Origin: a virus
Taxonomy: Duplodnaviria; Caudoviricetes
Virus record (IMG/VR): IMGVR_UViG_3300045950_000335
Span: 1 to 59,383 of that record
Length of the DNA: 59,383 nt
Strand: one strand, 5' to 3'
Shown here: positions 20,789 to 59,383 of the stretch, in pieces
How the letters are laid out: every line of letters begins with the position of its first letter
Position numbering within the stretch: position 1 is the stretch's first letter
The notes under the pieces: model-generated
Seen by the model: only the letters and a program-made list of their open reading frames with translations
What the model was told of the DNA's origin: nothing
Database searches by the model: none
Made by a program: the position numbers and the translations under genes

Positions 20789-20898
20789 GATGAAACGGAA
20801 CTGGCAAAAAAGAGGCGCGCATTTTACGCCAGATGCGCTGGATCGCATAAACAAATTGACCCGCCCAGGCACCTGTGATTAAATGCGCGCCCTCGATT

Positions 20899-20973
20899 GG
20901 GCGGTTAGCTCAGCGGTAGAGCACTGCCTTCACACGGCAGGGGTCACTGGTTCGAACCCAGTATCGCCCACCA
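20899..20973 (+). tRNA. tRNA-Val (CAC), probable integration site of the right prophage
   Basis: GGGCGGTTAGCTCAGCGGTAGAGCACTGCCTTCACACGGCAGGGGTCACTGGTTCGAACCCAGTATCGCCCACCA; upstream TTGACC-17-TTAAAT. Confidence 0.96.
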
Positions 20974-21018
20974 ATCAAATCAATCACATAGCATCAGCAA
21001 CGGCAGACAAATCAGCTG

Positions 21019-23035: not shown

Positions 23036-23620
23036 CTAGTTGCACCGCATCCACGGGTTGATGCTGAATACATGCATCCCGTCCGCATCGGTCGGCACGT
23101 AACGCTTGCCGTTGAACCACGGAGCCAGCTTCCAGCCCAGGCGCAGGCGGATGCAGCGGTCGATGAACGGCCATTTGATCAGAATGTACAGCTCGAACAC
23201 GCGCTCGCTGCCGCTGTCCATGACGGCGTAGAAGAATCCACCGCGGTAAGGCGACTCGGTGATGGCTGCATCGCCAGCCAGGCGCACAAGGCTCGCCATC
23301 ATGTTTACCGCTGTTCCCGGTTGCGCGAGCAGCGGCCTGAACTTCGCCCAATCCGTCGCCCGGTACGCCGGGTTGCGCCACAGCCAGCGCATCGCCGTCC
23401 AGTACCAGCCGGAGAGGTCGTACTCGGTGGACGGCCTGCCGACGTGGTTGGGGTCGCCGGGAAGCAGGCAATCCGGCGTTTCCATCCAGCGGAACGGCCG
23501 CGCCAAGCGACCGGTGCCGGGATCGGCGAACAGCAGCACAACGATGGGCGTGAGCACCATCGCCGGCAGCGTGGTGGCGATGGCGTAGAGGGTGATGAAC
23601 AGCCAGCGAATGAGTATCAT
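23036..23620 (-). CDS. Phage hypothetical protein homologous to 1-498
   Basis: WMETPD, WLWRNPAY, RLGWKL, NPWMRC. Confidence 0.75.
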   Translation of the reverse strand: MILIRWLFITLYAIATTLPAMVLTPIVVLLFADPGTGRLARPFRWMETPDCLLPGDPNHVGRPSTEYDLSGWYWTAMRWLWRNPAYRATDWAKFRPLLAQPGTAVNMMASLVRLAGDAAITESPYRGGFFYAVMDSGSERVFELYILIKWPFIDRCIRLRLGWKLAPWFNGKRYVPTDADGMHVFSINPWMRCN

Positions 23621-26059: not shown

Positions 26060-29000
26060 TTACTCGGTTTGCATCAGAGCCTCGATCTTCTCCATGCCTT
26101 CGCGCTCGATGCGGTCATACTCGCGCTGGCTGATCGCCCCCTTTTCCAGTAATCGCGCCGCGCTCCTGATCTCGGCCTTGACGCTCTTCGCCACGCCCAT
26201 CTTCATGCCTTCGGCGATCTCTTCCGAACGCTGCAGGTCAATCGGCTTTGCCTTGATGCCGAAGGTCTGCATCGCGGCATACTTAGGCTGCTCCGGTAGT
26301 CCGTCCTTGCCTGTCCCGGTATAGTCCCTGAACAGACTTGCCTTCTCCAGCGTGGTGTCGAAATAATTGGCCGCGCTATTCAGGATGCGGTCGTAGTGAT
26401 TCCCCATCGGAGCGACTGCCGGCATGAACTGTTTGTAGATGAAGCCAGCCGCCTTCTTCGCCTTGTCCGTGCCGGTGTCATTGCTATCGAACAGCTCCTT
26501 GCCGTCCCAGTTCCGGTTGTCGATCAGTCCGGAATAGAGACCAAGTAACGGATTGCTGGGCATTAGGGGTGCGGGGATGCCGCCGATCCCGCCCTTCTCG
26601 TTGTTCACGTCCTGGATGTCTCCGCCGGGGATGAAACGATAGACGTTCATGAACACCGGCATTCCGGTCTTCTCGTCGGTGCCGAGGCGGATGGTCTTCT
26701 GCGTGCCGAGTGCCGATCTGCCCTTGTCCCACTCGGGCAGGTTCTTGCGCTCCTCCTGCTCCAGCATTTGGCCTGCCGTCTCGGCCTCGCCGTCCCCGTA
26801 CAGGCCAAGTGTGTAGGCGTTCAGCAGCGCGTTTATCGTGCCGCTGGCAATCGCCGTCAGCCACCAATCATCATCCCCGCTGTCACCGGCCAGCGAAGCA
26901 TAAGTCAGCGCGTTGATGGACGCGATGATCGTTGCAGGCATCGCGAAGCGCCACGGGTATTCGACTGCGGTATGAATCAGTGCCGGCACGACCTTGTAGG
27001 TGTAGCCGAAGAACGGCAGCGCGTAATCGCGGATGACGCGTGCTGTCACTGGAAGGTCGTCGTAGTTGAAAATGTACTTGGTCGAGTACTGCACCGCGTC
27101 CTCCGGGCTCATACCCTTGCTGCGCGCGTCGCGGTAGATGGCGTACTTGAACAGCGTGTCGCCCAAGTGGTACGCCTTGGCGGCCTTCTCGTTCAGTCCG
27201 AGCGAGGCCAGTTTCCAGATAAACCTGCCAGCCCGGCGCGCCGCGCTGTCCGACGAAGCGCTGATCAGATTGCGCACCTCGGGCGGCATGCCCTTCATGA
27301 TCTCTTCCTGGCTGAAGTCTCCGGTGAACAGCCCGGCGTCCTCCGCCTCCTTCACCAGTTGATCTCCGCGCGCCAGGTCACGCAGTGCGAAATAGTATTT
27401 CTCTCCGTCCCAATAGCTCACCCCGGCGAAGTGCGCCATGGTCAGGTTCGACACGAAGTTGTTCATGTGGGTGACCGGATTCAGGACCGTCTTGCCCTCT
27501 TTCCACTTCGACAGCGCAGCCTTGTAATACTTCTGGAATTCGTTGTTGTTCTGCTCGTACTGGCTGATATGGTACAGAATCTCCTTCCGCACGTACATGC
27601 CGGAAAGCATGCCGTAGCTCTTCAGGCCGCCAGTGTCTGGTATCTCGGTTTCCGGGACATACACGAAGCCATCGGACGGCGTGCGGCGAGTCCATTCCGG
27701 ATTCTCGGCAATGGTCTTGTACAGCCGGCCGACGGACAGATCGCGCTGCATCGACAGGTAGCCCATCACGAAGCGCAATCGGAAGTCCTCGATCTCGCCC
27801 ATGTCGCGGCGTTCTTCCGGCGTGTAGTCCTTCCAGATGACGACGGTATCGGTATCCGGCAGCGGTTTCCCGTCCAGCGTCAGTTCCAGGTTGCCGCTGC
27901 GCAGGATGCGCTTGTCGTCCAGCTTCCAGCCCAACGCCTCCCATTGCGGCAGTTCGGCAGCCGTTACCACTTGGCGCTTGCCGCGTCCTTTCAGTGACCC
28001 GCTGCGAAACCCATCCACCGGGCTGCTCTTGAACGCGCGGCGCCACACGCTTTTGATCTCCGGGTCGAGGTGGCGCAGGTAGAAGCGCGGCAGGTAGCGC
28101 CCCTTCCATTTCTCGTAGGCGTCCTCAGACAGCATCTTGAGATCGACCGCATCCTGCCCCTGCTGCGTCATGGCCTGCTCCACCACGGCGGCGATCTTCA
28201 GCGCGTGCTCCGGCGGCACGTCGTCGTTCCTCATCTCCTGCGTCACGATGCGCGAGATCAGCCCGGCCTCTTCCTCGGTCATGCCCTTGGTGCTGTTCAC
28301 CACCTCGCCAGCGACACGCATGGCCTTGTCCAAGTCGGCTTTCTGCCGGCGGATCAACTTGGCCAGTTCCGGCGTCGCCTGCGCCATGCCCAGCTTCACG
28401 CCCATCGGGCGGAAGAACGCCGCATGCAGAAAGTCCTTGAAGCGGCGCGTACCGAGCAGTTCCGAGCGGATGTTGCCGAGTTCGTCACGGCTGTAGAGCA
28501 GCGGAACGGACTTCGGCAAAATGCGCGCCACGATGTCTGTGTTGCGCGGAACGGCGGGACCTTCCTTTGGTGCTGGCGCGCGGCTTGACATGGCGTAGCT
28601 GCCGTCCTCATGCTCGACTGCCGGTTCCGCCTTACCCTCAACCTTGCCCTTCATCTGGCGGATCAGGTCAAGTATCTCGGCGTCGCTCACCTCGTCGGCT
28701 TGCTCTCCAGGCTTTCCGAGTGCCGCACGCATGAAGCTGCGTAGCGCATCCACCACTCGCTGGATCAGCGCCCGCAGCCCGCCGCGCATCTCCGCCGGGA
28801 CGACCACCTGGTAGCGATCCAGCAGCGCATCGAAGTCGCCTGTGATGTGTGCCGCCGCCAGCTCGGCTATCGCCTCGTCCACATGCTTCCTGGCGTTGAG
28901 CGGCTCTTTGCGGTCGGCGGCGATGGCCCTGGCCAGCCTCGTCACGGTGCTGTTCTTCGCCGCAGTCTCAACCGTATCCTTGACGGACCGTCCAAGCATT

Positions 29001-32000
29001 CTGATGCCGCCGTGTCCTACGACCTCATGGACAGCAACCCACACCGCGCGCTCCGGCGTGGCGATATTGGAGGCGATCAGGTACACGGTGTTCGTCACCG
29101 GGTCATAGACGCCCTCGGTTCCCTGGTCGATGGGCTTGAGCGCGCGCAGAGAACGCAGATACAGGTCGTTCGGCACCTGGCGCGCCGTCTCGATGATCTT
29201 GATGTCGCGGAACCCGTGCCAGCCGTTGCGCAGCCGTGCAGTGGCCTTGGTGACTGATTCGACGGTCTGACCGCCTCCTGGGTTGCCTCGGCTGAACAGC
29301 GCCGCGCCGGAGCCTTCGGTAATCTCGAACGTCCCGTCATCACGGACAATCAGCGTGCCGTCGCGCTCCCCGAACGTATTGAAAAAGCGCCCGAACTTTC
29401 CGTCTTTCCAGTCGTAAGTCCCGGCCTTTCCGCGAAGGCGCGCATTGAAAAACAACACTCCTGATTTGTATTCAAGCGCGGCTTTCAGCGGGTCTCTTTT
29501 CTTCCCGAAGTCAACCTTTTTCGCCCCCTCCGGTGCGCTCTCCAGTTCCGCCGATTCGCGCGCCGACTTCTCTGCGGCAAGGCGTGTCTTGACCTGCTCT
29601 TCCAGCGCGTCAACCTTTGCCCGTTCTGCCTCATTCTCCGGAAAGAAACCAAGCAGCGGTCGTCCGCTTGAGTGTCCCGCCATGTGGTGCCACTCCACGC
29701 CGGAACCCCATGCTTCGGAATCCGTCGCCTGCACCACCTTGTATGCGGCATCCCTGCCGCCGGAATCGTTGGCATTGCGAGAGTTCCTGCGCATCACGCT
29801 GAATGCCGGATCGGCAACAAACGATACTTCCGTCCCTTCCGGCGTCACGCCGGTTACGATGGCATCCCTGGCCTGTTTCATGAACACGGCCAAGTCAAGG
29901 TCGGTAAATCCGTCCAACTTGTCGGCCAGCCAGTTCCAGTTGTGCCGTTCCGCGAAAACCTGCAATGCCTGTTTGATCTTGCCCAGCACCCACTTGATCG
30001 CCTTCGCCGTCTCGCCCGTGGTCTGCGCGTGGGCGATCAGCTCGTTCACGATGGCCGCACGCTTCTTCGCCAGCGCGGTCTTTTCCAGCCCAATAACGGC
30101 ATCGGTAACGGCGGATATTTCCTTTTCGATCCCGTACTGGCGCGCGATCTTCAACACCCCAGCCGTGCCGCCCGCGCGCTGCCAGAATTCGTTCATCACC
30201 GGGACTGCCGCTTTACCCAGCACAGCGAATGTGCCAAGATGCCCCAATGCCTCATGCACCAGAGTTTCCTCAACCTCGGCAACCGTCCCGATATTCGGGC
30301 GCACCAGATAGGCGTTACCTTGATAGACAAAGCCCTTGATCTCGTTCGGCGGATAACCAAGCTCTTCCGCCGCCGCAAGAATGTCAGCCGGAATGTTGGC
30401 ATGATCGTCTATCGTGACGATCCGGTTGCGGCTGACCGCATCCCATCCGGCGGAAAGCCGATGGACGGCTTCATCGAAATCTTTGGCGGCAAGCGGCTCG
30501 ACGACCGGTGAGCCCGTCTGGAACATCGCCGTGTCAGTTGTCTGGGTAGTCGAACCAAGAACCTCCCGCACATCCTCCGGCGAAAGCGTGTCTGTGTTCA
30601 GCGCCTCGATGGCCTTCAGCTTCGCGGCTTTGTCCAGGTCGGATGAGATGATGGCGGCTTTGGCGGATTGCTTGCTTTGCTCGGCTGGCTGGGGTATATT
30701 GTTTCTACCGGATGGCTGAAAGACAGAAATTTCGCCCTCTGCTGGAACCTCATGGTTCACTGGATGATGGGTACGGCGGCCATCCAGCCATTCGGCACTT
30801 TTATTCCTGTACTGCTTCAATCCCCTATCGCGTGTGGTAATGATGTTCACAACATCAGTTCCGTTGCCATTCTTGGAAATCTCCAGCACGACCAGATAAT
30901 TCTTGTCTGTCTCATAGACAATGAACGCGCTATTCTCCCGAGTCGGGTTATGCAATACCTCTGCCTTACCTTCGATGATCTTCGGCAGCGAGTCGATTAC
31001 TGAATCCAGCTCAGCATGACGCTGTTCATCAGTATGTTTCAGCGACTTTCCGGATACTCGGACGAGCGCATGTTTTTCGCTGAATCCGTCGATGAATTGC
31101 GAAAGATCATCAATCGTGGATTGCGGCAATGTACCAACAGAAAATGTCGCATCAGGGACTTGCTGGCCTTTCTCCTTGCCGAACACATTGGACTCAAGGT
31201 ATCGGCGGACTTCGCTGAACGGCTTTACGTTTCCGGCCTGATTGCTTGACGTTTCGGCGGCGCTGATGCGCGCGGTTATCTTTTCAGCGTCATCCTTCGA
31301 CGTGAATATGGATACCCTCTCACCATTGTCGGCGGCTGCGGCAATCCGATGGCGACCGTCATTTACGCCGATCTTGCCTTTCGCATTGATTGCCACCTCG
31401 ATATTGCCGGTGGACTTCTTCCCGCTGCGCACGGCATCCAGCTTGTCCTGGCTCCACGCAAGCTGCTCCCCGTTGTCGCTCTCGAACGCATTACGCAAAG
31501 CACGCGCATCAACCTCGATCTTGGTGTCGTAACCTTCGCGCCCGGTATCGGTTTGCGTTGCCAGCAAATCCTGCTGCCCATGCGCAGCCCCAACGTCCGC
31601 AGCGCGGTCGCTGCCGGTCAGGGTGAATTCTTCTGGGGATGGCGCAGCTTCACGGCGGGCCCGTTCTTCCGCCGCCTGCTTGCGCTGGAGGTCTTGCGCT
31701 TTTAGCTCTGCTTCGGTTTGGCTTTGGAGCGCGAATCCTGGCGCTTCTGATGCAGCTCGTGCGCCGCTTTTAGCACCTTCTTGCGCTCGCTCTCCGGCAC
31801 TTTCAGCAGGATTTCCGCCACCTCTTTTGTCATTTTCGCCATATTGTTCTCCAAGGAATACGGCCAGCGCCGCATCATCCGTCCGCAGGTCATCGCCAAA
31901 CGGTATATCTGTTCCCTCATCGAGCAGGTCAGCGATGCCGCTTGCATAGCCTACGTGTTCATCGCTCAACGCCTCGCGCTCGGCAATCTCCGCCATGCGC

Positions 32001-34075
32001 AGGGCATCTTCGGCCAGATAGATCGCCTCGTCAAGCTGCGTTTCGGACAGATTTTTCCACTTTATCCCCAAGCTTTCGGCATGGGAAATACGGTCATTGC
32101 TGTATCTGTCCTTGGCCTGCTGTTCGGCGAATTTCTCGATGGTCGAGGCCTTGAAGTTGCGCTCTCCTCCGATATGGGCGCGGATCATGTCCTTCAGTTG
32201 CTGCACGCCGCCATCCACGGAATGCGTGTCGATGGCAAAGCCTTCATCCGCCAGCGAGGTCGCCAGGTCATCCAGCCCGCGCCCGTCGTTCTTGAAGGCA
32301 AAGCGCCAGCCGCCGAGCTGCTTGCGGTCCTTCTCTCCGGTGATGTCGAACATCGCGCCGGCATCCACGCCGCCGAGTTGCTTGATGCGCTGCAACAGGT
32401 CGGACGAGGCCCGCGGCTTGCGCGCAGCCTGAATTGAAGGTGCGCTTTCCTGAAGAGGCGTGGCCGGTGCTGTGATAGGTGCGGTCGCGGATTGTGCCGT
32501 AGGTTTTGCATCTGCCACCGGCTGTGCGCTCGCCAGATCGAATCCACCTTGCACTCTATCTGATGCAGTGCGTTGCGCGTCGGCCAGTTCCTTCGCCTTG
32601 GCAAGGGTGGCAAGCACGGCGTCGTAGTCGGTCTTGGTTTCCGGATTGGCTGGCCGTGCCATTCCAGGCGCTGCTACTGCTCCGCCCATGACAGAACCAG
32701 CCATGATGCCTTCCACCGTTGCGCGGTTGACGCCCTCCATCACCGGCTTGTCCTCGGCGATGTTCTTCAGCATCTGCTCCATCGAGGACTGCGTACCCTC
32801 TTCGATGATGCCTTCCTGCATCATCGCAGCAGGGATGCGTTTGTAGAATGGAGAAGTCACTGCCGATGTCGCCGTTCCGCCGGCGAGCATGGTATCCACA
32901 TCACGGATGCCGAACTTGCTGGCGAGCGCGCCGCTGTATTTTCCGACCGCTGCGCCCATGATGCCTGTCGCCAGACTTGCCAGCGCCGCGGTGCGTGCAT
33001 CCACCGACTTGTCGATCTCGTTCATTTGCTGGCCGGCCATGATTGCGCCTTCGCCAATAGCACCAGCCGTGGTCGCCGCCTTCTGCATCGCAGCCGGAGC
33101 CAGCCCGGCCTTGGAAAGCATAGCGACACGACCAATTGCGCCGCCTGCGGCCATGGATGGCAGCGACTGGATGATATTTCCGGCAGTCACGCCTAGATTG
33201 GCGGCATATTCCTTGGTGACATCCCACCAGTCTTTTGTTTCATCGTTCCATACGGCGGTGATGTTGTTCTGGCCTTGCTTGCGGATGTCGGAATATCCGG
33301 CCTCCAGTTCCTGAGCGTACTTGGCTGGCTGGAATCCAGTCACCCTCCCAACCTCATCGAACAGCTTATCGGCGGGCCGTTCGCCAACAACCAGCGCCGG
33401 CGCGATGTCCAGCAATCCGGTGAAAGCTCCGGGAACCTTGGCTACGCCGATACGAAAATCCGTCGCCGTGTCGGCGATGACATGGTGAGCATTGGCATAG
33501 TTGCGCTGCTCGACTCCTTGAGCATATTGAGCGCCTTGCTCTGTCAGGATACGGCGCGCATTCTCGCCTTCCGGCGTATCGCTGGCCGCCAATGTGCGCA
33601 GCGAAGCCATGCGCGCATTCTCTGCGTCGATGCGCTCTTGCTCCGCCCTCCCTGACGCCTCAACCGCATCCGCCATCACCACTTCCGGCTTGCGCGTCAC
33701 CGCCTCCTGATCCGCGATGCGCGGCGAGCCGCTTCCCTGAATGAAGCGCGATGTCTCCGCCATGGTGTCATTCTGTCCGTCTGCCTTGGGCGCAACAGCG
33801 CGCTCCGCGGCAATATCCTGCGCGCGGGTATTGACAGAAGAATAGCCGTTTTCATCGAAGCGGATGCCGGAGCGGATCGCGGCCAGCTTGCTGTTGGTCG
33901 CATCGACCGGCGCATCCATGACGGACGGACTACGGAACAGCTCATTGGCCGAACGGTACAGGCGGTCCTTCATGGGGGCGGATTGAACGGGTTCATCTTG
34001 TGGCCCTATCGGTTTCGCCGAGGAAAGATCAAACCCGCCGGATACCGGCTTGGCCGAAGCGAGGTCGAAGGTCAT
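26060..34075 (-). CDS. Giant (2671 aa) internal virion / DNA-ejection polyvalent protein
   Basis: Located between internal virion genes and tail fibre; HEALGH and HEVVGH zincin-like motifs; ParB-like NDGRHR. Confidence 0.8.
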   Translation of the reverse strand: MTFDLASAKPVSGGFDLSSAKPIGPQDEPVQSAPMKDRLYRSANELFRSPSVMDAPVDATNSKLAAIRSGIRFDENGYSSVNTRAQDIAAERAVAPKADGQNDTMAETSRFIQGSGSPRIADQEAVTRKPEVVMADAVEASGRAEQERIDAENARMASLRTLAASDTPEGENARRILTEQGAQYAQGVEQRNYANAHHVIADTATDFRIGVAKVPGAFTGLLDIAPALVVGERPADKLFDEVGRVTGFQPAKYAQELEAGYSDIRKQGQNNITAVWNDETKDWWDVTKEYAANLGVTAGNIIQSLPSMAAGGAIGRVAMLSKAGLAPAAMQKAATTAGAIGEGAIMAGQQMNEIDKSVDARTAALASLATGIMGAAVGKYSGALASKFGIRDVDTMLAGGTATSAVTSPFYKRIPAAMMQEGIIEEGTQSSMEQMLKNIAEDKPVMEGVNRATVEGIMAGSVMGGAVAAPGMARPANPETKTDYDAVLATLAKAKELADAQRTASDRVQGGFDLASAQPVADAKPTAQSATAPITAPATPLQESAPSIQAARKPRASSDLLQRIKQLGGVDAGAMFDITGEKDRKQLGGWRFAFKNDGRGLDDLATSLADEGFAIDTHSVDGGVQQLKDMIRAHIGGERNFKASTIEKFAEQQAKDRYSNDRISHAESLGIKWKNLSETQLDEAIYLAEDALRMAEIAEREALSDEHVGYASGIADLLDEGTDIPFGDDLRTDDAALAVFLGEQYGENDKRGGGNPAESAGERAQEGAKSGARAASEAPGFALQSQTEAELKAQDLQRKQAAEERARREAAPSPEEFTLTGSDRAADVGAAHGQQDLLATQTDTGREGYDTKIEVDARALRNAFESDNGEQLAWSQDKLDAVRSGKKSTGNIEVAINAKGKIGVNDGRHRIAAAADNGERVSIFTSKDDAEKITARISAAETSSNQAGNVKPFSEVRRYLESNVFGKEKGQQVPDATFSVGTLPQSTIDDLSQFIDGFSEKHALVRVSGKSLKHTDEQRHAELDSVIDSLPKIIEGKAEVLHNPTRENSAFIVYETDKNYLVVLEISKNGNGTDVVNIITTRDRGLKQYRNKSAEWLDGRRTHHPVNHEVPAEGEISVFQPSGRNNIPQPAEQSKQSAKAAIISSDLDKAAKLKAIEALNTDTLSPEDVREVLGSTTQTTDTAMFQTGSPVVEPLAAKDFDEAVHRLSAGWDAVSRNRIVTIDDHANIPADILAAAEELGYPPNEIKGFVYQGNAYLVRPNIGTVAEVEETLVHEALGHLGTFAVLGKAAVPVMNEFWQRAGGTAGVLKIARQYGIEKEISAVTDAVIGLEKTALAKKRAAIVNELIAHAQTTGETAKAIKWVLGKIKQALQVFAERHNWNWLADKLDGFTDLDLAVFMKQARDAIVTGVTPEGTEVSFVADPAFSVMRRNSRNANDSGGRDAAYKVVQATDSEAWGSGVEWHHMAGHSSGRPLLGFFPENEAERAKVDALEEQVKTRLAAEKSARESAELESAPEGAKKVDFGKKRDPLKAALEYKSGVLFFNARLRGKAGTYDWKDGKFGRFFNTFGERDGTLIVRDDGTFEITEGSGAALFSRGNPGGGQTVESVTKATARLRNGWHGFRDIKIIETARQVPNDLYLRSLRALKPIDQGTEGVYDPVTNTVYLIASNIATPERAVWVAVHEVVGHGGIRMLGRSVKDTVETAAKNSTVTRLARAIAADRKEPLNARKHVDEAIAELAAAHITGDFDALLDRYQVVVPAEMRGGLRALIQRVVDALRSFMRAALGKPGEQADEVSDAEILDLIRQMKGKVEGKAEPAVEHEDGSYAMSSRAPAPKEGPAVPRNTDIVARILPKSVPLLYSRDELGNIRSELLGTRRFKDFLHAAFFRPMGVKLGMAQATPELAKLIRRQKADLDKAMRVAGEVVNSTKGMTEEEAGLISRIVTQEMRNDDVPPEHALKIAAVVEQAMTQQGQDAVDLKMLSEDAYEKWKGRYLPRFYLRHLDPEIKSVWRRAFKSSPVDGFRSGSLKGRGKRQVVTAAELPQWEALGWKLDDKRILRSGNLELTLDGKPLPDTDTVVIWKDYTPEERRDMGEIEDFRLRFVMGYLSMQRDLSVGRLYKTIAENPEWTRRTPSDGFVYVPETEIPDTGGLKSYGMLSGMYVRKEILYHISQYEQNNNEFQKYYKAALSKWKEGKTVLNPVTHMNNFVSNLTMAHFAGVSYWDGEKYYFALRDLARGDQLVKEAEDAGLFTGDFSQEEIMKGMPPEVRNLISASSDSAARRAGRFIWKLASLGLNEKAAKAYHLGDTLFKYAIYRDARSKGMSPEDAVQYSTKYIFNYDDLPVTARVIRDYALPFFGYTYKVVPALIHTAVEYPWRFAMPATIIASINALTYASLAGDSGDDDWWLTAIASGTINALLNAYTLGLYGDGEAETAGQMLEQEERKNLPEWDKGRSALGTQKTIRLGTDEKTGMPVFMNVYRFIPGGDIQDVNNEKGGIGGIPAPLMPSNPLLGLYSGLIDNRNWDGKELFDSNDTGTDKAKKAAGFIYKQFMPAVAPMGNHYDRILNSAANYFDTTLEKASLFRDYTGTGKDGLPEQPKYAAMQTFGIKAKPIDLQRSEEIAEGMKMGVAKSVKAEIRSAARLLEKGAISQREYDRIEREGMEKIEALMQTE

Positions 34076-51054: not shown

Positions 51055-51096
51055 ATGATAGGCGCGCCTAACATCTTAGTCAATAGGCTTGCCGAA
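51055..51096 (-). promoter_or_regulatory. pR-like promoter with two CI operators
   Basis: Minus-strand TTGACT-17-TATCAT; dyads ATAGGcgcgCCTAA (51058-51071) and ATAGGcttgCCGAA (51083-51096). Confidence 0.8.
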
Positions 51097-51119
51097 TGCA
51101 CACAATGCTAATGTTAGGC

Positions 51120-51794
51120 ATGAGTTCGCTATCAGAAAGAATCAAAGAGCTTGCCGCCGACCTTCCGCGCGGGTGGCAGGCCGAGCTTGCGCGCTATTGC
51201 AAGGTAAAGCCGCCGTCGGTCGCTGGGTGGGTATCTGGTGACACAAAAACGCTTGACGGCGAGAACCTGCTGAACGTGGCAGCATTTTTCAAGGCGAACC
51301 CGAAATGGATTGCTACAGGAAAAGGTAGAAAATACCCAGATTCTTCCACCTATTCATCGGGAAGCGCCGCTCCAGAGCAAGGCAATATCTCTCCACAAAA
51401 AATAGCCATCGGAGGAAGAGTGCCTTTAATCAGCCTAGTGGCGGCTGGTACCTGGAGAGAGAGCGTGGATAACTTAGTGCCTGGAACAGCAGAAGAATGG
51501 GTAACAACAACCGTTGCCGTAAAACAACACACCTACGCCCTGCGCGTGGAAGGCGACTCGATGGAGCCGCGCTTCCCGCATGGAGCCATCCTGATCGTGG
51601 AGCCGGAGGAAGAGGCCCGCAACGGCAGCTTCGTCATCGTGCGCCAGAACGGCTCGGAGGCCACGTTCAAGCAGCTAGTATATGATGGCGGCCAAGCCTA
51701 CCTCAAGCCGCTCAACCCGCGCTACCCGATCATGCAGATGCGTCCGGACGCGGTGATCTGCGGCGTGGTCAAGCAGATGGTGATGGACGTATAA
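51120..51794 (+). CDS. CI-like repressor (HTH plus S24 peptidase)
   Basis: QAELARYCKVKPPSVAGW; VAAG cleavage site; VEGDSMEP; ATFKQL. Confidence 0.92.
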   Translation: MSSLSERIKELAADLPRGWQAELARYCKVKPPSVAGWVSGDTKTLDGENLLNVAAFFKANPKWIATGKGRKYPDSSTYSSGSAAPEQGNISPQKIAIGGRVPLISLVAAGTWRESVDNLVPGTAEEWVTTTVAVKQHTYALRVEGDSMEPRFPHGAILIVEPEEEARNGSFVIVRQNGSEATFKQLVYDGGQAYLKPLNPRYPIMQMRPDAVICGVVKQMVMDV

Positions 51795-52970: not shown

Positions 52971-53046
52971 AGCGAGGTAGAGCAGTTGGCAGCTCGGGTG
53001 GCTCATAACCACCAGGTCGCCGGTTCGAGTCCGGCCCTCGCAACCA
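52971..53046 (+). tRNA. Phage tRNA-Met (CAT), initiator-like
   Basis: AGCGAGGTAGAGCAGTTGGCAGCTCGGGTGGCTCATAACCACCAGGTCGCCGGTTCGAGTCCGGCCCTCGCAACCA. Confidence 0.88.
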
Positions 53047-54112: not shown

Positions 54113-54294
54113 AGGCGCTGCACGACCGCATAGACCGCATGGCAGAGCAGGCACAGATCGAAATCATGAAGGACGGCCTGCGCGCCCGTTGCCAGCTTAA
54201 CGGACTGGTGGCGCACCACAACCGCAGCCTCGCGCAACTCAGGCGCAACCGGATGGCGGAAAGACTGGCTAAACAACAAGGAGATAAGAAATGA
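54109..54294 (+). CDS. Hypothetical protein
   Basis: ATGA overlaps. Confidence 0.5.
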   Translation: MKALHDRIDRMAEQAQIEIMKDGLRARCQLNGLVAHHNRSLAQLRRNRMAERLAKQQGDKK

Positions 54295-55223
54295 ATGCAG
54301 TCACAGAGCAAGGCAAGAACACGAACAAGGTTGCCGCATTCGCTGGGTTCATGGACAAGCTCAAGCCGCAACTGGCGAGAGCGCTGCCAACCCACATGAA
54401 CGCCGACCGCATGGCGCGCTTGGCGCTGACCGCATTCAGCACCACCCCGGCGCTGCAACAATGCGACCCGAAGAGCATTGCCGGTTCGATCATGACCGCT
54501 GCGCAGCTAGGACTTGAGCCGGGCATCAACGGACAAGGCTACCTGATTCCGTATAAGGAAACCTGCACCTTCGTTCCAGGCTGGAAGGGACTGGTCGATC
54601 TGGTGGCCCGCAGTGGCCGCGCTACCGTATGGACTGGCGCGGTGCGCGCTGGCGACGAATTCGAGTATCAGTTGGGCGATACCCCATTCTGCAAGCACAA
54701 GCCTGGCGACGAGGACGACGACGCGCCCTTTACCCACGTCTATGCCATCGGTCGCGTGCGCGATGCCGCCATGCCGGTGATCGAGGTATGGAGCCGCGCC
54801 AAGGTGCAGAAGCACCTCAAGAAGTACAACAAGGTCGGCAATCGTCACTACGCGCTGGCAGACGAGAACAACCTGGAAATGTACGCCCGCAAGTGTGCGC
54901 TGCTGCAGGTGCTGAAATACATGCCATCGAGCATCGAGCTTGCCAATGCAATCGTTGCCAGCAATGCCGCGGAAGAGGGTCACGGAGTCACCATTGAGAA
55001 CGGCATCGTGGTCGATATGGGCGGATCGGAAAGCGAGCCAGCCAAGGATCAGCGCGCCGAATGCACGCCTGAGCAATTCGCCGATCTGGCTGCAGAGTGG
55101 GAAAGCCTGGTGCGCACTGGAAAGAAGAGTGCGAAGCAGGCGCTGGCTGCGATGGCGACGATCTGTGTCCTCACCGAAGAGCAGCAGTTGCAGGTTGATG
55201 CCTGGCAGTCGGAGGGCAACTGA
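54291..55223 (+). CDS. recT: RecT family single-strand annealing recombinase
   Basis: ALPTHMNADRMAR...AAQLGLEPG..GQGYLIPY...GWKGLVDLVARSG. Confidence 0.92.
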   Translation: MNAVTEQGKNTNKVAAFAGFMDKLKPQLARALPTHMNADRMARLALTAFSTTPALQQCDPKSIAGSIMTAAQLGLEPGINGQGYLIPYKETCTFVPGWKGLVDLVARSGRATVWTGAVRAGDEFEYQLGDTPFCKHKPGDEDDDAPFTHVYAIGRVRDAAMPVIEVWSRAKVQKHLKKYNKVGNRHYALADENNLEMYARKCALLQVLKYMPSSIELANAIVASNAAEEGHGVTIENGIVVDMGGSESEPAKDQRAECTPEQFADLAAEWESLVRTGKKSAKQALAAMATICVLTEEQQLQVDAWQSEGN

Positions 55224-55225
55224 TC

Positions 55226-56827
55226 ATGGAAATCCACGACATCCAGCAAGGCACTCCCGAGTGGGACGCATTCCGCCTGACCCACTTCGGCGCCAGCGAG
55301 GCCGCGGCGATGCTTGGCCTCTCCAAGAAGGTGAAGCGCACCGAACTGCTGCGCATGAAGCACACCGGCATTGCCAAGGAGTTCAGCGATTGGGTGCAGG
55401 AGAACGTCCTTGACCACGGCCACGAAGTTGAGGCGCTTGCCCGCCCGATCATCGAGCGCATCATCGGTGCGAAGCTCTATCCGGTGGTTTGCTCCGAAGG
55501 CAAGTTGTCAGCGTCCTGCGACGGCCTGACGGCAGACGATAGAACTGCCTTCGAGCATAAGCAGTGGAACGCAGACCTTGCCGAGCTGGTGCGCAACGGC
55601 ATTGTGCCAGACGATCACATGTCGCAATGTCAGCAGATATTAATGATTACAGAGGCCGAGCGCGTCATCTTCACTGTGTCCGATGGCACCGAGGAAAAAA
55701 TGGTATACGTCGAGGTGAGGCCGGACCAAGAATGGTTCTCGCGCATCATGCACGGATGGACACAGTTCGCCATCGATCTCGAAAACTACCGACACGTTGA
55801 AATCCAAGAAAAGCCGAAGGCCGAGGCCATCATGGACCTGCCCGCGCTGTCTGTGCAGGCTTCCGGCATGGTCACGTACTCCAACCTGCCGGAATTCAAG
55901 GCGGCAGCCGAGAGCTACATCTCAGGCATCAACACCGACCTGCAGACCGACAACGACTTCGCCAACGCCGAGGCCACGGTCAAGTTCTGCAAGAAAACCG
56001 AGGAAACGCTGGACGTAACGAAAAAGGCCATCCTCGCGCAGACCGCCAGCATCGACGAAGTAATCCGGACGGTCGAGCATATCCAAGCGCAGCTTCGCGA
56101 CAAGCGCCTGCTGCTGGACAAGCTGGTGAAGACCGAGAAGGACAAGCGCAAGACGGAAATGGTGGCCGCGGCAAATGTGAAGTACGCCGAGCACGTCGCC
56201 GCACTGCAGGCCGAGATAACCGGGATCAACCTGAACCCGCTGCTCAAGACGCCGGACTTTGGCGGCGCCATTAAGGGGCTGAAGTCGCTGGCATCCATGC
56301 ACGACGCTCTGGATGCCGCGCTGGCGAACGGCAAGATCGAGGCAGACCGCATCGCCCTGGACGTGCGCGCAAAGCTGGTATGGTTCGGCAAGTACGCTGA
56401 TGACTACCGCGCGCTGTTTGCCGACATGCAGCTACTTATGGGTCTGACCGGCGATGCGTTTGAGGCAATCGTGAAGAACCGCATCGCCGAGCACAAGGCC
56501 GCCGAAGCCGCCGCGAAGCTGGCCGAGGAAGAGGCGCGCATCCGGGCGGAGGAATGGGCGAAGGCGAAGGCCGAACTGGATGCTGCGAAGAACAGCCAGG
56601 AAGGCGCTCAACTATCACCGGCAGCGCAGGAACTGTACGAAGCAGAGGGTGCGGCTCGATTCTCAGAGAAGCATCCTGCCTTGGCGTCCAAACCTGAGGC
56701 AGCGAAGGCACCGCGCCCGACGCGCATGGCGCTTATTGAATGCATTGCCAGCCACTACGGCGTCAGCATCCTGACCGCCGGCGAGTGGCTGCGCACGGTA
56801 TTCACAGATGGAATACCAACTTGCTAG
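55226..56827 (+). CDS. YqaJ/lambda-exonuclease family protein with long C-terminal coiled coil
   Basis: QGTPEW...FGASEA...GHEVE...SASCDG...FEHK. Confidence 0.9.
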   Translation: MEIHDIQQGTPEWDAFRLTHFGASEAAAMLGLSKKVKRTELLRMKHTGIAKEFSDWVQENVLDHGHEVEALARPIIERIIGAKLYPVVCSEGKLSASCDGLTADDRTAFEHKQWNADLAELVRNGIVPDDHMSQCQQILMITEAERVIFTVSDGTEEKMVYVEVRPDQEWFSRIMHGWTQFAIDLENYRHVEIQEKPKAEAIMDLPALSVQASGMVTYSNLPEFKAAAESYISGINTDLQTDNDFANAEATVKFCKKTEETLDVTKKAILAQTASIDEVIRTVEHIQAQLRDKRLLLDKLVKTEKDKRKTEMVAAANVKYAEHVAALQAEITGINLNPLLKTPDFGGAIKGLKSLASMHDALDAALANGKIEADRIALDVRAKLVWFGKYADDYRALFADMQLLMGLTGDAFEAIVKNRIAEHKAAEAAAKLAEEEARIRAEEWAKAKAELDAAKNSQEGAQLSPAAQELYEAEGAARFSEKHPALASKPEAAKAPRPTRMALIECIASHYGVSILTAGEWLRTVFTDGIPTC

Positions 56828-57055: not shown

Positions 57056-57525
57056 CGACGCCTATTGCGCAGGCCGGCACAGAGAGTGGTTTTGATGCTT
57101 TAGAAGAGGCGGTCGGCGCATATTGGGATTGCGCGTACCAGGAGGGACATCTGGGCCGCCAGGACGGCGACAAGGCCAATGCAATACTGCATGAGATTCG
57201 ACGCGCTGCGACAGCGCTTGTTGCGGAAGAACGCGCCCGATGGGAGCCGGCGGCCGAGAAAGCATACAAGGCACTTTGCGAAGAGTCGGCTGCATACGAT
57301 GAACCGCTGTCGCATGCTCCAGGCCACGCGCACGCCGTACCTGGCGTGTGGGACGACGACAACGGCGAACTGGCCGGCAAGCGTTGCGCATGGTGCGCGA
57401 CGTGGGCGAAGGCGAAGGCGATGGGACTCACGACGCCCAACGCCAGAGTTGACCGGCCTGACGCGGCTTTATGCGGCAGGTCCGGTCGGACGACGGGTTG
57501 TGCGGCTGGTGGAGAAGACCGATGA
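57052..57525 (+). CDS. Hypothetical protein reading through attC3
   Basis: C-terminal PNARVDRPDAALCGRSGRTTG is the translated attC. Confidence 0.6.
   Translation: MTTPIAQAGTESGFDALEEAVGAYWDCAYQEGHLGRQDGDKANAILHEIRRAATALVAEERARWEPAAEKAYKALCEESAAYDEPLSHAPGHAHAVPGVWDDDNGELAGKRCAWCATWAKAKAMGLTTPNARVDRPDAALCGRSGRTTGCAAGGEDR
57435..57503 (-). other. attC site 3 (69 bp)
   Basis: Minus: GCACAAC-CCGTC-GTCCGACC-GGAC...CCGGTCAAC-TCTGGC-GTTGGGC; folds into a hairpin with extrahelical bases. Confidence 0.82.
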
Positions 57526-58103
57526 CGGTGGCCGTGCTCTTCGCTCGCGCGGACAGCAACTACAAGGCTCTGCCTAACGTTGAGGTATTCGACGCCGAGC
57601 GAGACGCTCGCACCTACGACGGGCCGTGGCCGGTTGTGGCGCACCCGCCCTGCCGTGCCTGGGGAATGTTACGCAAGCTCGCCAGCCCGCGACCAGACGA
57701 GCGCAACCTGGCGCGGCTTGCCGTGGCTTTGGTGCGGGAGTTTGGTGGCGTGTTGGAGCACCCAGCCGGCTCGACGCTCTGGGCGGCGCAGAAGCTGCCG
57801 AAGCCCGGAGAGCGCGACGCCTTCGGCGGCTGGACGCTCGAAATTGACCAATGGCGATTCGGGCACCGCGCCATGAAGATGACGCGACTGTACGTGGTCG
57901 GAGCGGAGCCCGAGGAGGCCCCACGACTGCCGCCGGCGAAAACAGGGGAACCGACGCATGTGATAACACAAGGCCGGCGTGCGAAGAAAGGCGAACCGGG
58001 CTTTCGCAGCAGGGTGACAGACGCGGAACGCGAGCATACGCCGCCGGCGCTCGCGCAATGGCTCGTAGAACTGGCGGCGAAGTGCAAGACGCACAACGTT
58101 TGA
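57522..58103 (+). CDS. Cassette ORF: compact DNA cytosine methyltransferase-like protein
   Basis: VAVLF (degenerate motif I), VAHPPC (IV), VLEHP (VI), GHRAMKMTRLY (VIII-like), REHTPPALAQWL. Confidence 0.65.
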   Translation: MTVAVLFARADSNYKALPNVEVFDAERDARTYDGPWPVVAHPPCRAWGMLRKLASPRPDERNLARLAVALVREFGGVLEHPAGSTLWAAQKLPKPGERDAFGGWTLEIDQWRFGHRAMKMTRLYVVGAEPEEAPRLPPAKTGEPTHVITQGRRAKKGEPGFRSRVTDAEREHTPPALAQWLVELAAKCKTHNV

Positions 58104-58159
58104 GGTAACCGGCCTCGCGCGCTTTTTGCGCGAGGTCCGTGTTGACCGAGAGGTTATGC
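58091..58159 (-). other. attC site 2 (69 bp)
   Basis: Minus: GCATAAC-CTCTC-GGTCAACA-CGGAC-CTCGCGCaaaaagcGCGCGAG-GCCGGTTACC-TCAAAC-GTTGTGC. Confidence 0.88.
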
Positions 58160-58189
58160 CTCTCGCAACTACGAAGAAAGGAAAGAACC

Positions 58190-58483
58190 GTGAGCAACAA
58201 ACTGAAACTGACCAAGATCGAACTGACCACGAAAGACGGCAAGAAGGTTGAGTTGTCGTTGGATGAGGCGAAAGACCTGCACGACCAACTGCATGAATTG
58301 TTCGGCCAGAAAACCGTCTTTGTGCCTGGGGCGCCGGTAATCATTGAGCGTGACCGTTACTGGCGGCCGTACCAGCCGTATTGGGGCGGCGGCGGCGGGG
58401 GCGGGAGTGACCAGCGAACCTGGGAAGTGCTTTGCAAGAGCAGCAGCGGCCTTGCGGTGACGTATGGCGGACAAGAGGCATAA
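58190..58483 (+). CDS. Cassette ORF: hypothetical protein (97 aa)
   Basis: RBS AAGGA, GTG start; TAA lies within GCATAAC. Confidence 0.65.
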   Translation: MSNKLKLTKIELTTKDGKKVELSLDEAKDLHDQLHELFGQKTVFVPGAPVIIERDRYWRPYQPYWGGGGGGGSDQRTWEVLCKSSSGLAVTYGGQEA

Positions 58484-58569
58484 CGTCGAAGGTCAGGGGC
58501 CGGCGCCCACTGACCGTTGAACAACCTGCAAAACGCTTGCCGCCGGTCCCCTGCACCGTAGGGTTAGCC
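58478..58569 (-). other. attC site 1 (92 bp)
   Basis: Minus: GGCTAAC-CCTAC-GGTGCAGG-GGAC-CGGCG...CGCCGG-CCCCTGACC-TTCGAC-GTTATGC. Confidence 0.85.
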
Positions 58570-58593
58570 GGCACCACCGGAAAGGGTGCACGC

Positions 58594-58839
58594 ATGAATC
58601 TCTACCACTTTTGCGCGATGAGACAAGGCGAAAGCGCTGGTGTTTTGTCATACGCCGATGGAACAGTTTCGTCGTCAGGCAATTTTGCTGATGCTGAAGA
58701 ATACGTGAAGTTGAAGAGGGCGATAGTCAAATACATCAACGCCAACGGCGGACACGCCACGGAGGTTGTTCTGCTGTCGCTGACGCTCATTGGGGAAGTG
58801 CCGGCTAACTTGAATTCAACGACACCACCTGTCGCGTGA
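58594..58839 (+). CDS. Cassette ORF: hypothetical protein (81 aa), reads through the candidate attI
   Basis: ATG after AAGGG; lower GC than flanks. Confidence 0.6.
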   Translation: MNLYHFCAMRQGESAGVLSYADGTVSSSGNFADAEEYVKLKRAIVKYINANGGHATEVVLLSLTLIGEVPANLNSTTPPVA

Positions 58840-58853
58840 ACAGGGGTCGCGTG
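58803..58853 (-). other. Candidate attI site
   Basis: Minus strand GTTGAATTCAA-GTTAGCC core with no attC hairpin partner; direct repeats GTCGCGTG at 58831 and 58846; adjacent and divergent to the IntI-type gene. Confidence 0.6.
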
Positions 58854-58891
58854 CCGTATAACTCGATCACGCACAACTGGAGGGCCGCATC

Positions 58892-59383
58892 ATGACTGAT
58901 CTCTTGGAATTGAACGCGACAGCGCAAACCGTTCAACGCGACACGCCTGCCGTGCCGCACGAACCGCCGCGCCCGGTGAAGCTGCTCGACCAGGTGCGCG
59001 AGCGCATCCGCACGCTGCACTACAGCCGAGCCACCGAGAAAACCTACCTCTACTGGATCAAGTTCTTCATCCTCCAGCAAGGCAAGCGCCACCCGCGCGA
59101 CATGGGCGCCGCCGAGGTCGAAGCCTTCCTCTCGCACCTCGCCACCGCTCGCGAAGTCTCCGCCGGCACGCAGAACCAGGCCATGCACGCCATCCTGTTC
59201 CTCTACAAGCAAGTCCTCGGCATCGACCTGCCCTGGCTCGAAGTCGTCCGCGACGTCCTCGGCCATACCAGCGTGCGCACCACCGAGCGCTACGCCCACC
59301 TAGCCGTAGATCGGCAGCGCGAAGCCCTGCAGGCGCTTTCACGCGCCGTCAAAAAGTCCAGGGGTGTAGCAAATCCGGTGTAA
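58892..59383 (+). CDS. Chimeric/truncated tyrosine recombinase: IntI-type N-terminal domain fused to LGH..TT..YAH tail; probably catalytically incomplete
   Basis: LLDQVRERIRTLHYS..TEKTY..WIK.FI...KRHPRDMG..EVEAFLSHLA....VS..TQNQA..A.LFLYKQVL..DLPWL, then directly EVVRDVLGHTSVRTTERYAHL. Confidence 0.8.
   Translation: MTDLLELNATAQTVQRDTPAVPHEPPRPVKLLDQVRERIRTLHYSRATEKTYLYWIKFFILQQGKRHPRDMGAAEVEAFLSHLATAREVSAGTQNQAMHAILFLYKQVLGIDLPWLEVVRDVLGHTSVRTTERYAHLAVDRQREALQALSRAVKKSRGVANPV

Follow-up and report, generated by a model that had tools for sequence, protein, structure and literature searches.

A truncated integron integrase gene joined in frame to a phage integrase tail probably strands both a lambda-like prophage and its small cassette array

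In the textbook integron, the cassette genes read away from intI and can be expressed from the platform promoter Pc. Defective, or 'grounded', prophages have lost int and xis by deletion. According to the part of Nemergut et al. (2008; PMC2426708) available to us, pseudogenes account for almost a third of intI genes, and one clade of them carries a gene fusion. For phages, the accessible part of Qi et al. (2023; PMC9892861) counts three complete integrons and one In0 in 10,705 phage genomes, from Vibrio, E. coli P1 and Shewanella, and explains two of these as captured pieces of host integrons. The window analysed here is the whole of IMG/VR virus record IMGVR_UViG_3300045950_000335 (59,383 nt), which ends in a hybrid of an integron integrase gene and a phage integrase gene.

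The hybrid ORF (58892-59383, plus strand) encodes 163 aa from an ATG to a TAA that forms the last three bases of the record. Codons 1-115 (58892-59236, plus strand) are an intI remnant with a complete SAM-like N-terminal domain, as identified by Pfam and NCBIfam, while the remainder (59237-59383, plus strand) comprises the final 48 codons and native stop of the prophage's own integrase gene. The protein reads ...DLPWL, then EVVRDVLGHTSVRTTERYAHL. PF13495 (Phage_int_SAM_4) covers residues 31-114 (E 1.4e-27), and PF00589 residues 116-138 only, at profile positions 147-169 of 172 with an E of 0.0066, below the cut-off. The NCBIfam integron-integrase models (TIGR02249/NF011946) align with residues 18-117 only (E 1.1e-33) and score 116.9 bits, where the cut-offs are 265 and 435 bits. 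The N-termini of IntI proteins are 70-82% identical to the head of the hybrid. At the DNA level, intI genes of other loci are 73-83% identical to the window, the closest being L028 and L003 (81-83%), and this identity stops at 59241. Pfam, NCBIfam and the ORF sequence all agree with the original prediction, which had described an IntI-like head of about 115 aa ending in DLPWL and joined in frame to another tail.

The catalytic core had also been predicted to be absent, with only the last histidine and the tyrosine left, and both the sequence and tblastn searches of the whole window confirm this. Left in the tail are the histidine of LGH and the tyrosine of RYAH; the hybrid ORF lacks Arg-I and its surroundings, the hairpin with the Lys, the HxxR motif and the insertion specific to IntI. 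The additional domain specific to IntI is present in 23 of the 24 viral-contig relatives read through, but not in the window. With full-length IntI proteins and phage integrases as queries, the window yielded nothing more of either gene: there is no IntI sequence past residue 119, and seven full-length integrases of the tail's family match only through their final 39-49 residues. A PF00589 search of the whole record returned 59237-59305 as its sole match and no other tyrosine recombinase. A single-sequence AlphaFold2 model reaches a pLDDT of 72-86 for residues 31-110 and 32-58 for the tail, which may lend weak support to the hybrid being dead.

Searched separately, the two halves of the protein belong to different families, the tail being nearer to a phage integrase than to IntI, as the original prediction had it. 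The tail matches 23 integrases of 294-337 aa that contain PF00589 without PF13495 (E 2e-12 to 3e-5, 63-87% identity; among the matches listed, 24 of 115 candidates). Its family is that of P0121, a phage tyrosine integrase type of about 320 aa with PF00589 only. In tblastn the tail is 87% identical to P0121 over 39 aa, compared with 33% (E 0.11) to the tail of the IntI protein P0037, and a simple internal deletion within one IntI gene is rejected on that basis. The closest int DNA, in L026 (2508-2624), is 77% identical. An arrangement of the SSV1/Mx8 type, in which attP lies within int and integration splits the gene, would place the 5' part of int at the other prophage end; none is present in the window, and this arrangement is rejected.

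The hybrid gene is preceded by an attI block and intI upstream region (58807-58891). When the window is aligned with 16 other loci, conservation sets in sharply at the crossover triplet (58807-58809; AAC on the plus strand, GTT on the array strand) and continues up to the intI start codon, whereas the sequence upstream is unrelated. The one LexA-box-like feature upstream of intI is a palindrome, CTGT-N7-ACAG, that the window shares with L028 and that is not conserved in the other loci. Three attC sites are predicted on the minus strand, at 58478-58569 (site 1; 34.8 bits, E 1.1e-07), 58091-58159 (site 2; 57.1 bits, E 5.1e-14) and 57435-57503 (site 3, the distal end of the array; 60.6 bits, E 5.2e-15). 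The scores are those of R1, a covariance model built from 15 attC sites of other loci, excluding the window, with covariation in 7 of its 10 model pairs. Run on the 59-kb window, R1 yields exactly these three sites (57435-58569), and the next best of the 48 listed has an E of 0.065. Site 3 is also reached by the cassette chain rule anchored at attI, which holds at 22 of 34 attI motifs, the window included; in most of the 12 failures (L005, L009, L031, L032 and L043 included) the upstream flank is just a few hundred bases long. Perfect inverted repeats link site 2 to the start of cassette 2 (11 nt) and site 1 to the attI crossover (12 nt; 58563-58574 with 58798-58809). The fold energy of site 1 is not significant by itself (z -1.57 and -1.17). 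A scan of the window by box pattern and fold energy returned nothing, which is a false negative of the filter given the three sites found by the chain rule and R1, and blastn-short with the three sites gave almost no matches. The predicted attI and attC sites are those of an integron platform plus array, and they bear out the array to which the original prediction referred.

All three cassettes contain ORFs on the plus strand. The ORF of cassette 1 (58594-58839, 81 aa) crosses the cassette boundary into attI; its GC content by codon position is ambiguous and its coding strand uncertain, and it has no Pfam or PHROG match. Cassette 2 carries a gene of 98 aa (58190-58483; 58139-58483 in the ORF list), likewise with no Pfam or PHROG match. 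Its GC content by codon position (0.60/0.42/0.71) resembles that of the phage's known genes, compared with 0.70/0.43/0.59 for the antisense ORF. The gene of cassette 3 (57522-58103; 57471-58103 in the ORF list) belongs to phrog_12600, a family of unknown function (PHROGs E 4.1e-70, residues 19-207). Homologues of phrog_12600 also lie between attC sites in L048/L085, L012 and L087.

The integron is contained entirely in a lambda-like prophage that is inserted at tRNA-Val. ARAGORN and Rfam identify a tRNA-Val(cac) gene at 20899-20973 on the plus strand (20899-20983 with the next 10 nt), and its 3' part forms the att core of the left prophage end, attL, at 20924-20983. This core is 95% identical to L045 (2555-2613) and 90% identical to L026 (2736-2794). 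In both loci it lies downstream of int, on the int strand and within about 90 nt, which is the orientation that a second att immediately beyond the window would be expected to have. Within the window the left copy stands alone. Lysis genes begin at 21055, and at the opposite end a cI-like repressor, RecT and RecE-like genes and then the hybrid gene, reading outwards, place the hybrid where a lambda-like prophage keeps int. The record ends at the hybrid's stop codon, and the position of the right att falls beyond the last base. CheckV gives the prophage a completeness of 100, and the only other recombinase in the record is the serine recombinase of a neighbouring P2-like prophage. Phage genes (portal, HNH, endolysin) follow intI in L017, L022, L023, L037 and L038 as well. 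Since the integron sits between phage early genes and the att-proximal int with no internal att core, we rejected the notions that intI is a host gene or integration target, or that a host integron lies beside the prophage.

Relatives with a full intI and a separate int, of the kind the original prediction had envisaged, do exist. In L014, L020, Thiobacillus sp. 65-1402 (a MAG; L019/L048/L085) and Thiobacillus denitrificans RG (L084), the genes stand in tandem: intI is followed on its own strand by an excisionase-like ORF, after which come an int of the tail's family and tRNA-Val(cac). The excisionase-like ORF of these loci is HTH_17-like and is not matched by anything in the window. Identity of their int to the tail's family is 57-63%, and the tRNA-Val of the loci with both genes has the opposite orientation. 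Relative to the tandem arrangement, the window is short of about 1.7-2.2 kb. In alignment A1, intI relatives match the window up to and including the junction stretch (59236-59241, plus strand, GCTCGA), while int relatives match from the junction onward, leaving a microhomology of 2-6 bp.

We consider it likely that a tandem-module ancestor underwent a single deletion that produced a dead intI/int hybrid. The ancestor would have been a lambda-like temperate phage of a betaproteobacterium in which a complete small integron ended the early-left operon, in the order RecT and RecE-like genes, cassettes, attI, intI, excisionase-like gene and phage tyrosine integrase, with an attP containing the 3' part of tRNA-Val just downstream of int. 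One illegitimate deletion of about 1.7-2.2 kb at the 2-6 bp microhomology would have taken out everything from codon 116 of intI, through the excisionase-like gene, to about codon 278 of int, leaving the two stumps in frame by chance. The tandem relatives, the junction microhomology and a reproduced join (see below) support the single in-frame deletion originally predicted. The relatives found include no nearly identical parent in which the arrangement is undeleted (closest intI 81-83%, closest int 77%), and the tandem loci differ in int and in tRNA-Val orientation, so from the sequences at hand a single deletion appears to be the most economical reading rather than an observed event.

The product would be recombination-dead because it combines the DNA-binding head of IntI with only the histidine and the tyrosine helix of Int. 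The prophage would then be unable to excise by its own means and the three cassettes would be immobile for their own IntI. The hybrid is thus most likely a non-functional scar, and one that probably strands both the prophage and its small cassette array. Of the earlier claim that array and prophage are frozen, the array itself is borne out by its attI and three attC sites; the freezing would be conditional, as IntI or Int acting in trans could still move either.

The hybrid could instead be an assembly artefact in which two contigs were glued at a short shared word. The window does come from a metagenome, the junction falls in a gene family with many relatives in the same sample, and short pieces of other contigs lie on 58978-59122 at depths of up to 168. 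However, a Logan contig of 9965 nt, assembled independently from run X1, covers 57400-59383 with 0 differing letters, 0 gaps and an even depth of 16, although X1 is the probable source run and the Logan assembly may be the same data assembled twice. Moreover, the two sides of the join have no more than 6 nt in common, and a word of that length would not mislead a k-mer assembler (Logan uses k = 31). We regard an artefact, which the original prediction had named as an alternative, as very improbable. The Logan contig also extends 111 nt beyond the window end. At contig level, where neither read support nor a minor variant would show, X1 and X2 contain no undeleted form. One contig joins 57486 to 58095 with a side of 20 nt, and this joint and the high-depth pieces on 58978-59122 are taken as attC and intI sequences of other organisms rather than variants of the locus. 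Run X2 (landfill, share 0.05) gave only short pieces and is uninformative on habitat. Recombination between two elements would also yield a dead hybrid; one of them might be a phage arriving with an integron, and the other an int remnant already resident at tRNA-Val or a tandem prophage. tRNA genes are frequent hosts of tandem elements, and L026, the closest int relative, has no intI in the 1.3 kb of contig upstream of int, yet has an attC site at 701-767. Other IntI-head fusions are also inexplicable by simple deletion in the known gene order: in P0007 (L005) the fusion partner is the C-terminal part of a C5 methylase, and that methylase lies upstream of intI in L013 but in the other prophage in the window (91% identity to 16551-16823). 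Against this, the intI-xis-int tandem occurs in at least four independent relatives, the third att-core copy expected of tandem elements is missing from the window, and a single deletion requires one event. An origin from two elements is therefore unlikely.

Whichever route produced it, the 163-aa protein might have been kept for a function, binding attI or attC as a repressor or dominant-negative inhibitor of IntI enzymes, with a tail that may provide its tyrosine in trans. A retained function is possible in that the ORF is intact and in frame, with the N-terminal domain whole and no further decay. Consistent with this, PF13495 is complete and modelled with moderate confidence, the conserved block upstream of intI and the native stop are in place, and P0002, P0004 and P0007 are also cut just past the domain and run in frame into the C-terminus of another gene. 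These other fusions differ, however, in partner and break point, and many further truncated IntI proteins (P0005, P0008, P0012, P0046 and P0052) have their break at another place or out of frame. Chance plus ascertainment would therefore account for the in-frame cases, and P0002, P0004 and P0007 were dropped as meaningful examples. The same fusion was not found elsewhere: it is a singleton among the 5.8 billion clusters of the protein database, P0001 is the only carrier of the tail among proteins of 89-286 aa (four matches of eight candidates), and none of the 12 N-terminal relatives read has the tail. The tail is poorly modelled, and a scan of 57300-59383 for sigma-70-like promoters gave 0 sites. 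The frequency of intI pseudogenes, nearly one third in the available part of PMC2426708, likewise speaks against function, which we judge improbable.

The deletion aside, the window is one member of a recurrent betaproteobacterial lineage of phage-borne integrons, with 24 loci in IMG/VR besides the window's own record, that is apparently undescribed in the literature searched. Its cargo is mostly DNA methyltransferases, with Mom-like and other DNA-modification genes. In the window as in its relatives, the cassette genes are oriented towards intI and thus opposite to the textbook arrangement. Across 63 cassettes from other loci, 51 PHROG and 8 Pfam families are matched by ORFs on the intI strand, compared with 1 and 1 for ORFs on the canonical strand; the phrog_12600 gene of the window is on the intI strand, and GC3-GC1 favours that strand in 50 cassettes versus 24. 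ORF length on the two cassette strands is uninformative (14, 11 and 49 ambiguous of 74). Being inverted, the cassette genes would be read with the phage operon towards intI and not from a platform promoter. One broader reading, whose chances we hold to be evenly balanced, is that these loci represent an undescribed and widespread temperate-phage lineage of Thiobacillus-like Betaproteobacteria in which a working integron serves as a built-in, exchangeable accessory locus that closes the early-left operon and is immediately followed by xis-int. The attI/attC geometry of this locus would be canonical and its cassettes inverted, with a cargo mainly of DNA methyltransferases, Mom-like and DNA-modification genes. 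Such a locus would be the phage-side counterpart of bacterial defence-cassette integrons, shuffling counter-defence genes among phages.

By itself, the hybrid gene is best seen as a decay product. It marks a prophage that would have newly lost its integrase, excisionase and integron integrase through one event, and so offers a natural example of the grounding of prophages and of the origin of intI pseudogenes. The main value of the locus lies in the full integron platform embedded in phage genomes, which recurs on many environmental contigs and which a cultured strain of Thiobacillus denitrificans has too. Provided that the IntI of the intact relatives is active, integrons would serve not only bacterial gene sampling but also phages, as a tool for swapping counter-defence genes, with cassette expression that does not need the platform promoter.

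The T. denitrificans RG and Thiobacillus sp. 65-1402 loci resemble the inferred ancestor in having an attC array, attI, intI, an HTH_17-like ORF, int and tRNA-Val(cac), and the latter shares the phrog_12600 cassette with the window (69% identical). They differ in that no gene is broken, the identity of int to the tail's family is about 60% and a complete tRNA-Val lies beside int on the opposite strand, whereas the complete tRNA-Val of the window is at the far prophage end. A class 1 integron used as a control (Salmonella genomic island, AB571791.1) has the same intI/attI/attC geometry as the window, and each of its attC sites, followed outwards from intI, begins with the RYYYAAC box and ends with the GTTRRRY box, the arms being asymmetric in the same way; this geometry was read by eye, the 11-mer chain rule having returned nothing on the control. 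The cassette genes dfrA12 and aadA2 of the control read away from intI1, while those of the window and its relatives read towards intI. As far as the available part of PMC2426708 goes, the intI pseudogenes of chromosomal integrons resemble the window in having lost intI by a large deletion beside an otherwise intact attI and array. The window differs from them in that its probable deletion ends in a second, unrelated tyrosine recombinase gene to give an in-frame hybrid, and in that its integron is on a prophage rather than the chromosome proper. Grounded prophages, like this one, look otherwise complete but are without a working integration/excision module; here the deletion would, in addition, have put out of action the integron, a second recombination system on the same prophage. 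The phage integrons in the accessible part of PMC9892861 share with the window's lineage an intI, attI and attC cassettes in temperate phages, with DNA methyltransferases as recurrent cargo. In comparison with them, the lineage described here is betaproteobacterial and recurrent, lies directly upstream of xis-int and has inverted cassette genes.

The fusion ORF (58892-59383, plus strand; 163 aa), whose end is the last base of the record, joins parts of two unrelated recombinases. Residues 31-114 form a SAM-like domain (PF13495, E 1.4e-27), and residues 18-117 match NCBIfam integron-integrase models (E 1.1e-33, 116.9 bits, far under the full-length cut-offs). The sequence after ...DLPWL, EVVRDVLGHTSVRTTERYAHL, matches only the final 23 positions of the PF00589 profile. 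These matches bear out the original description of an IntI head followed by a tail that retains only the last His and the Tyr, with the Arg, the Lys, the HxxR motif and the IntI-specific insertion all absent. In separate searches of the halves, 2,425 of 2,528 candidate proteins matched the head at E <= 0.001, led by IntI proteins and IntI fragments that share 70-82% identity with it. Against longer proteins, the tail (residues 116-163) hit at least 23 integrases of 294-337 aa (24 of 115 candidates listed), which contain PF00589 without PF13495, have C-termini resembling this tail and are 63-87% identical to it (E 2e-12 to 3e-5). In a tblastn comparison it shares 87% identity over 39 aa (E 5e-16) with P0121, a phage tyrosine integrase of ~320 aa, and just 33% (E 0.11) with the tail of a full-length IntI. 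Because the tail matches P0121-type integrases and hardly the IntI tail, an origin of both halves from one IntI family is excluded. No further pieces of intI or int are present elsewhere in the window.

Used as a query against viral contigs, the fusion protein recovered 24 loci (of 38 pattern matches), in 23 of which the frame runs on through a full IntI of ~340 aa, IntI-specific insertion included; the remaining locus, L005, carries a different IntI-head fusion. Metagenome and genome scans contributed 53 and 20 extra loci, respectively. Relatives with a full intI and a separate int are present: in L014, L020 and L019/L048 (one sequence from two collections, found again as L085 in a Thiobacillus sp. 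MAG), the same-strand integrase after intI is 57-63% identical to the tail's family, and L084 (Thiobacillus denitrificans RG) has the same gene order. In all of these, a few bases separate the int stop from tRNA-Val(cac) downstream, and a small ORF sits between intI and int. This ORF is 68-75% identical to the one directly upstream of int in L026, the locus whose integrase is the tail's closest relative, and resembles HTH_17, an excisionase-type fold (Pfam, E 1.4e-5, just below the cut-off). It has no match in the window.

DNA similarity to the intI of other loci spans ~58799 to 59241, and similarity to L026 int spans 59236 to 59352. In the junction alignment (A1), the part of the window that intI relatives and int relatives have in common is at most six bases long (59236-59241), a length of microhomology typical of illegitimate deletions. 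Intact relatives put the size of the missing stretch at ~1.69 kb (L020, L014) to 2.15 kb (L048). The fusion keeps frame and ends at the native int stop, a one-in-three outcome. Taken together, the different families of the two halves, the tandem relatives and the microhomology support the proposal that a single deletion fused intI to the prophage's int, and we consider this the probable origin of the ORF. The competing explanation, that the join was made during assembly, is contradicted at contig level by X1, a public groundwater metagenome run that is possibly the source sample. All sampled words of 58000-59383 are present in X1, and a 9,965-nt contig of its Logan assembly covers 57400-59383 at depth 16 with 0 differences and 0 gaps, extending 111 nt past the window end; the same join was therefore reproduced from X1 reads by a second assembly method. 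A six-base overlap cannot make a false join in k-mer assembly, the k of Logan presumably being 31.

The product of this proposed deletion most likely does nothing useful. The last His and the Tyr are its sole catalytic residues, the IntI insertion, which serves to recognise attC in its folded form, is gone, and the fusion was found once in the protein collection. A weak structural model, built from the single sequence, is confident for the N-domain only. That this retained DNA-binding head acts as a regulator, as had also been suggested, or as an inhibitor seems to us improbable. The record holds no other tyrosine recombinase, and its serine recombinase is part of a P2-like neighbour. We infer that the prophage is left without an integrase or excisionase of its own and the three cassettes without a cognate IntI; enzymes acting in trans could still mobilise either.

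The array named in the original prediction does exist. When the 220 bases upstream of intI were aligned for the window and 16 loci, the sequences were unrelated up to a sharp boundary at AAC (58807-58809), from which a conserved 85-nt block runs to the intI start codon. Such a boundary is the signature of a predicted attI, with the crossover at the boundary. On the minus strand, going outwards, a 12-base stretch from the GTT at 58807-58809 onwards is matched by an exact reverse complement 223 nt away, and the 11 bases that follow the next GTT are matched in the same manner 310 nt away. An integrated cassette should show this relation between its start and the first box of its attC. This chain rule is satisfied at 22 of 34 attI motifs, the window's included, and at most of the others the upstream flank is just a few hundred bases long. 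A covariance model was built on 15 attC sites taken from other loci (alignment A2); 7 of its 10 pairs show compensatory changes. Scanned against both strands of the whole window with filters off, the model identified attC sites at 57435-57503 (E 5e-15), 58091-58159 (E 5e-14) and 58478-58569 (E 1e-7), the fourth-ranked of the 48 matches listed reaching only E 0.065. In 61 other loci there are 147 attC matches at E <= 0.001, every one on the strand opposite intI and nearly all upstream of it. The attI boundary, the chain rule and the three covariance matches together identify a three-cassette integron in the window.

The IMG/VR 'provirus', a complete record of 59,383 bases, consists of two prophages and a 1.8-kb host island; the database entry for the fusion ORF's protein comes from a contig of 73,656 bases. 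The first third (1 to ~19,200) is the right part of a P2-like prophage encoding a tape-measure protein, gpD, Ogr/Delta, a Toprim primase, a C5 DNA methylase (15048-16835) and a 503-aa large serine recombinase (17686-19197), whose ORF end overlaps the 3' end of a tRNA-Glu (19157-19232, minus strand). The short host stretch between the prophages holds this tRNA-Glu, a tRNA-Ala, glutamyl-tRNA synthetase (19397-20872) and tRNA-Val(cac) (20899-20973). The lambda-like prophage runs from 21,055 to the window end, with lysis genes (Rz1-like, CHAP endolysin), tail fibre and structural genes on the minus strand and a cI-like repressor (51096-51794), RecT (54291-55223), a RecE-like exonuclease (55226-56827) and, as its last gene, the fusion ORF on the plus strand. 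Its structural region includes a 2,671-aa ORF (26060-34075, minus strand), in a similar place to a 2,187-aa ORF in L005, and the tail-fibre gene (23617-26004) contains a 21/63-nt tandem repeat (25373-25573) coding for a repetitive segment. A tRNA-Met(cat) lies between the repressor and RecT (52971-53046); a tRNA-Met is also found near the integron in L023 and L027.

The last 50 bases of tRNA-Val and the following 10 bases (20924-20983) recur downstream of int, on the int strand, in L045 (95%) and L026 (90%). In L026, whose int is 90% identical to P0121, the tRNA-Val core copy begins 93 nt past the int stop. This layout is as expected if the prophage has a complete tRNA-Val at its left and a predicted core repeat ~90 nt past the window at its right. 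In the Thiobacillus-type relatives, the complete tRNA-Val adjoins int on the other strand, so this int sub-family uses the same tRNA-Val in another arrangement. The recurrence of the core beside int in L045 and L026, and the lack of an extra core copy inside the window, argue that phage, integron and int remnant form one inserted element, its right-hand repeat being a prediction. The proposed fusion to the prophage's int is supported, with the amendment that the integron, too, would belong to the prophage. L048 also contains a second, partial tRNA-Val copy (5' half, 12683-12722) beside the complete one next to int, probably a displaced host part or a trace of earlier integration.

Full-length intI genes accompanied by attI and by attC arrays of as many as ~11 sites are present in phage contigs (L002-L025 from IMG/VR, and L084, L085 and L087), often directly upstream of a phage integrase, either a tyrosine integrase (at least three kinds occur) or a large serine recombinase. 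In L003/L004/L030, L047 and L045, and also in L016, L021, L025, L012 and L013, intI is followed by a more distant tyrosine integrase; L010 has the large serine recombinase. The other four of ten downstream ORFs tested were ParB-like, primase, portal and HNH endonuclease; in other phage contigs, intI adjoins a portal, HNH or endolysin gene. Named hosts of the lineage include Thiobacillus denitrificans RG, the Thiobacillus sp. MAG and Sulfuricella denitrificans. L026 (701-767 and 1520-1759) has no intI within its 1.3 kb of upstream contig; its xis-int is preceded by a lone attC site, at 701-767, and a Dam-like methylase ORF, perhaps what is left of an array or the result of a cassette inserting off-site. 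L011 may have a second integron platform: downstream of its intI lies another attI-like motif whose cassette chain has four links (11610-13294), and a 385-aa ORF comes next. Other IntI-head fusions were also observed: the C-terminus of the window's C5 methylase (16551-16823) is 91% identical to the tail of fusion P0007 (L005 925-1209), with the same region at L013 7007-7279; P0002 is a third IntI-head/C5-methylase hybrid; and the tail of P0004 (L028) is the C-terminus of a small gene found downstream of intI in L027.

Pseudogenes of intI are described as common, at nearly one third in a genomic survey (PMC2426708), and phage integrons are reported as rarities, with three complete integrons and one In0 in 10,705 genomes, methyltransferases being remarked on as their cargo (PMC9892861). 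Our literature search turned up no account of an intI-int hybrid, of a betaproteobacterial phage lineage with an integron beside xis-int or of arrays with genes pointing to intI. As a decay product the hybrid gene is ordinary; the module it comes from is unusual, and it is this integron module, rather than the hybrid, that is of interest.

Cassette 3 has its gene (phrog_12600, E 4e-70) on the intI strand, directed toward attI. It also occurs between attC sites in L048/L085, L012 and L087 (Sulfuricella), and DNA similarity of cassette 3 to L048 extends over attC3, on the 5' side of the gene. Orientation was compared in 63 cassettes of other loci (each a span of 250-1600 nt bounded by adjacent nhmmer hits, with eleven duplicate loci and the window excluded), taking the longest ORF of at least 60 aa per strand. 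The 60 ORFs on the intI strand matched 51 PHROG and 8 Pfam families, and the 62 on the canonical strand matched one of each. Cargo on the intI strand includes C5, N4/N6, Dam and D12 DNA methyltransferases, Mom, PAPS reductase, DUF5131 and a Rv2179c-like exonuclease; across loci L002-L101 it is mostly DNA methyltransferases, Mom and other DNA-modification genes. In the phage, these genes are co-directional with the early-left operon. The class 1 integron control (L102), in the same orientation, has the attI/attC geometry and arm asymmetry of this lineage, but its genes point away from intI1, whereas cassette genes here point toward attI and intI. The lineage therefore combines canonical recombination sites with inverted cassette genes, the reverse of the textbook orientation.
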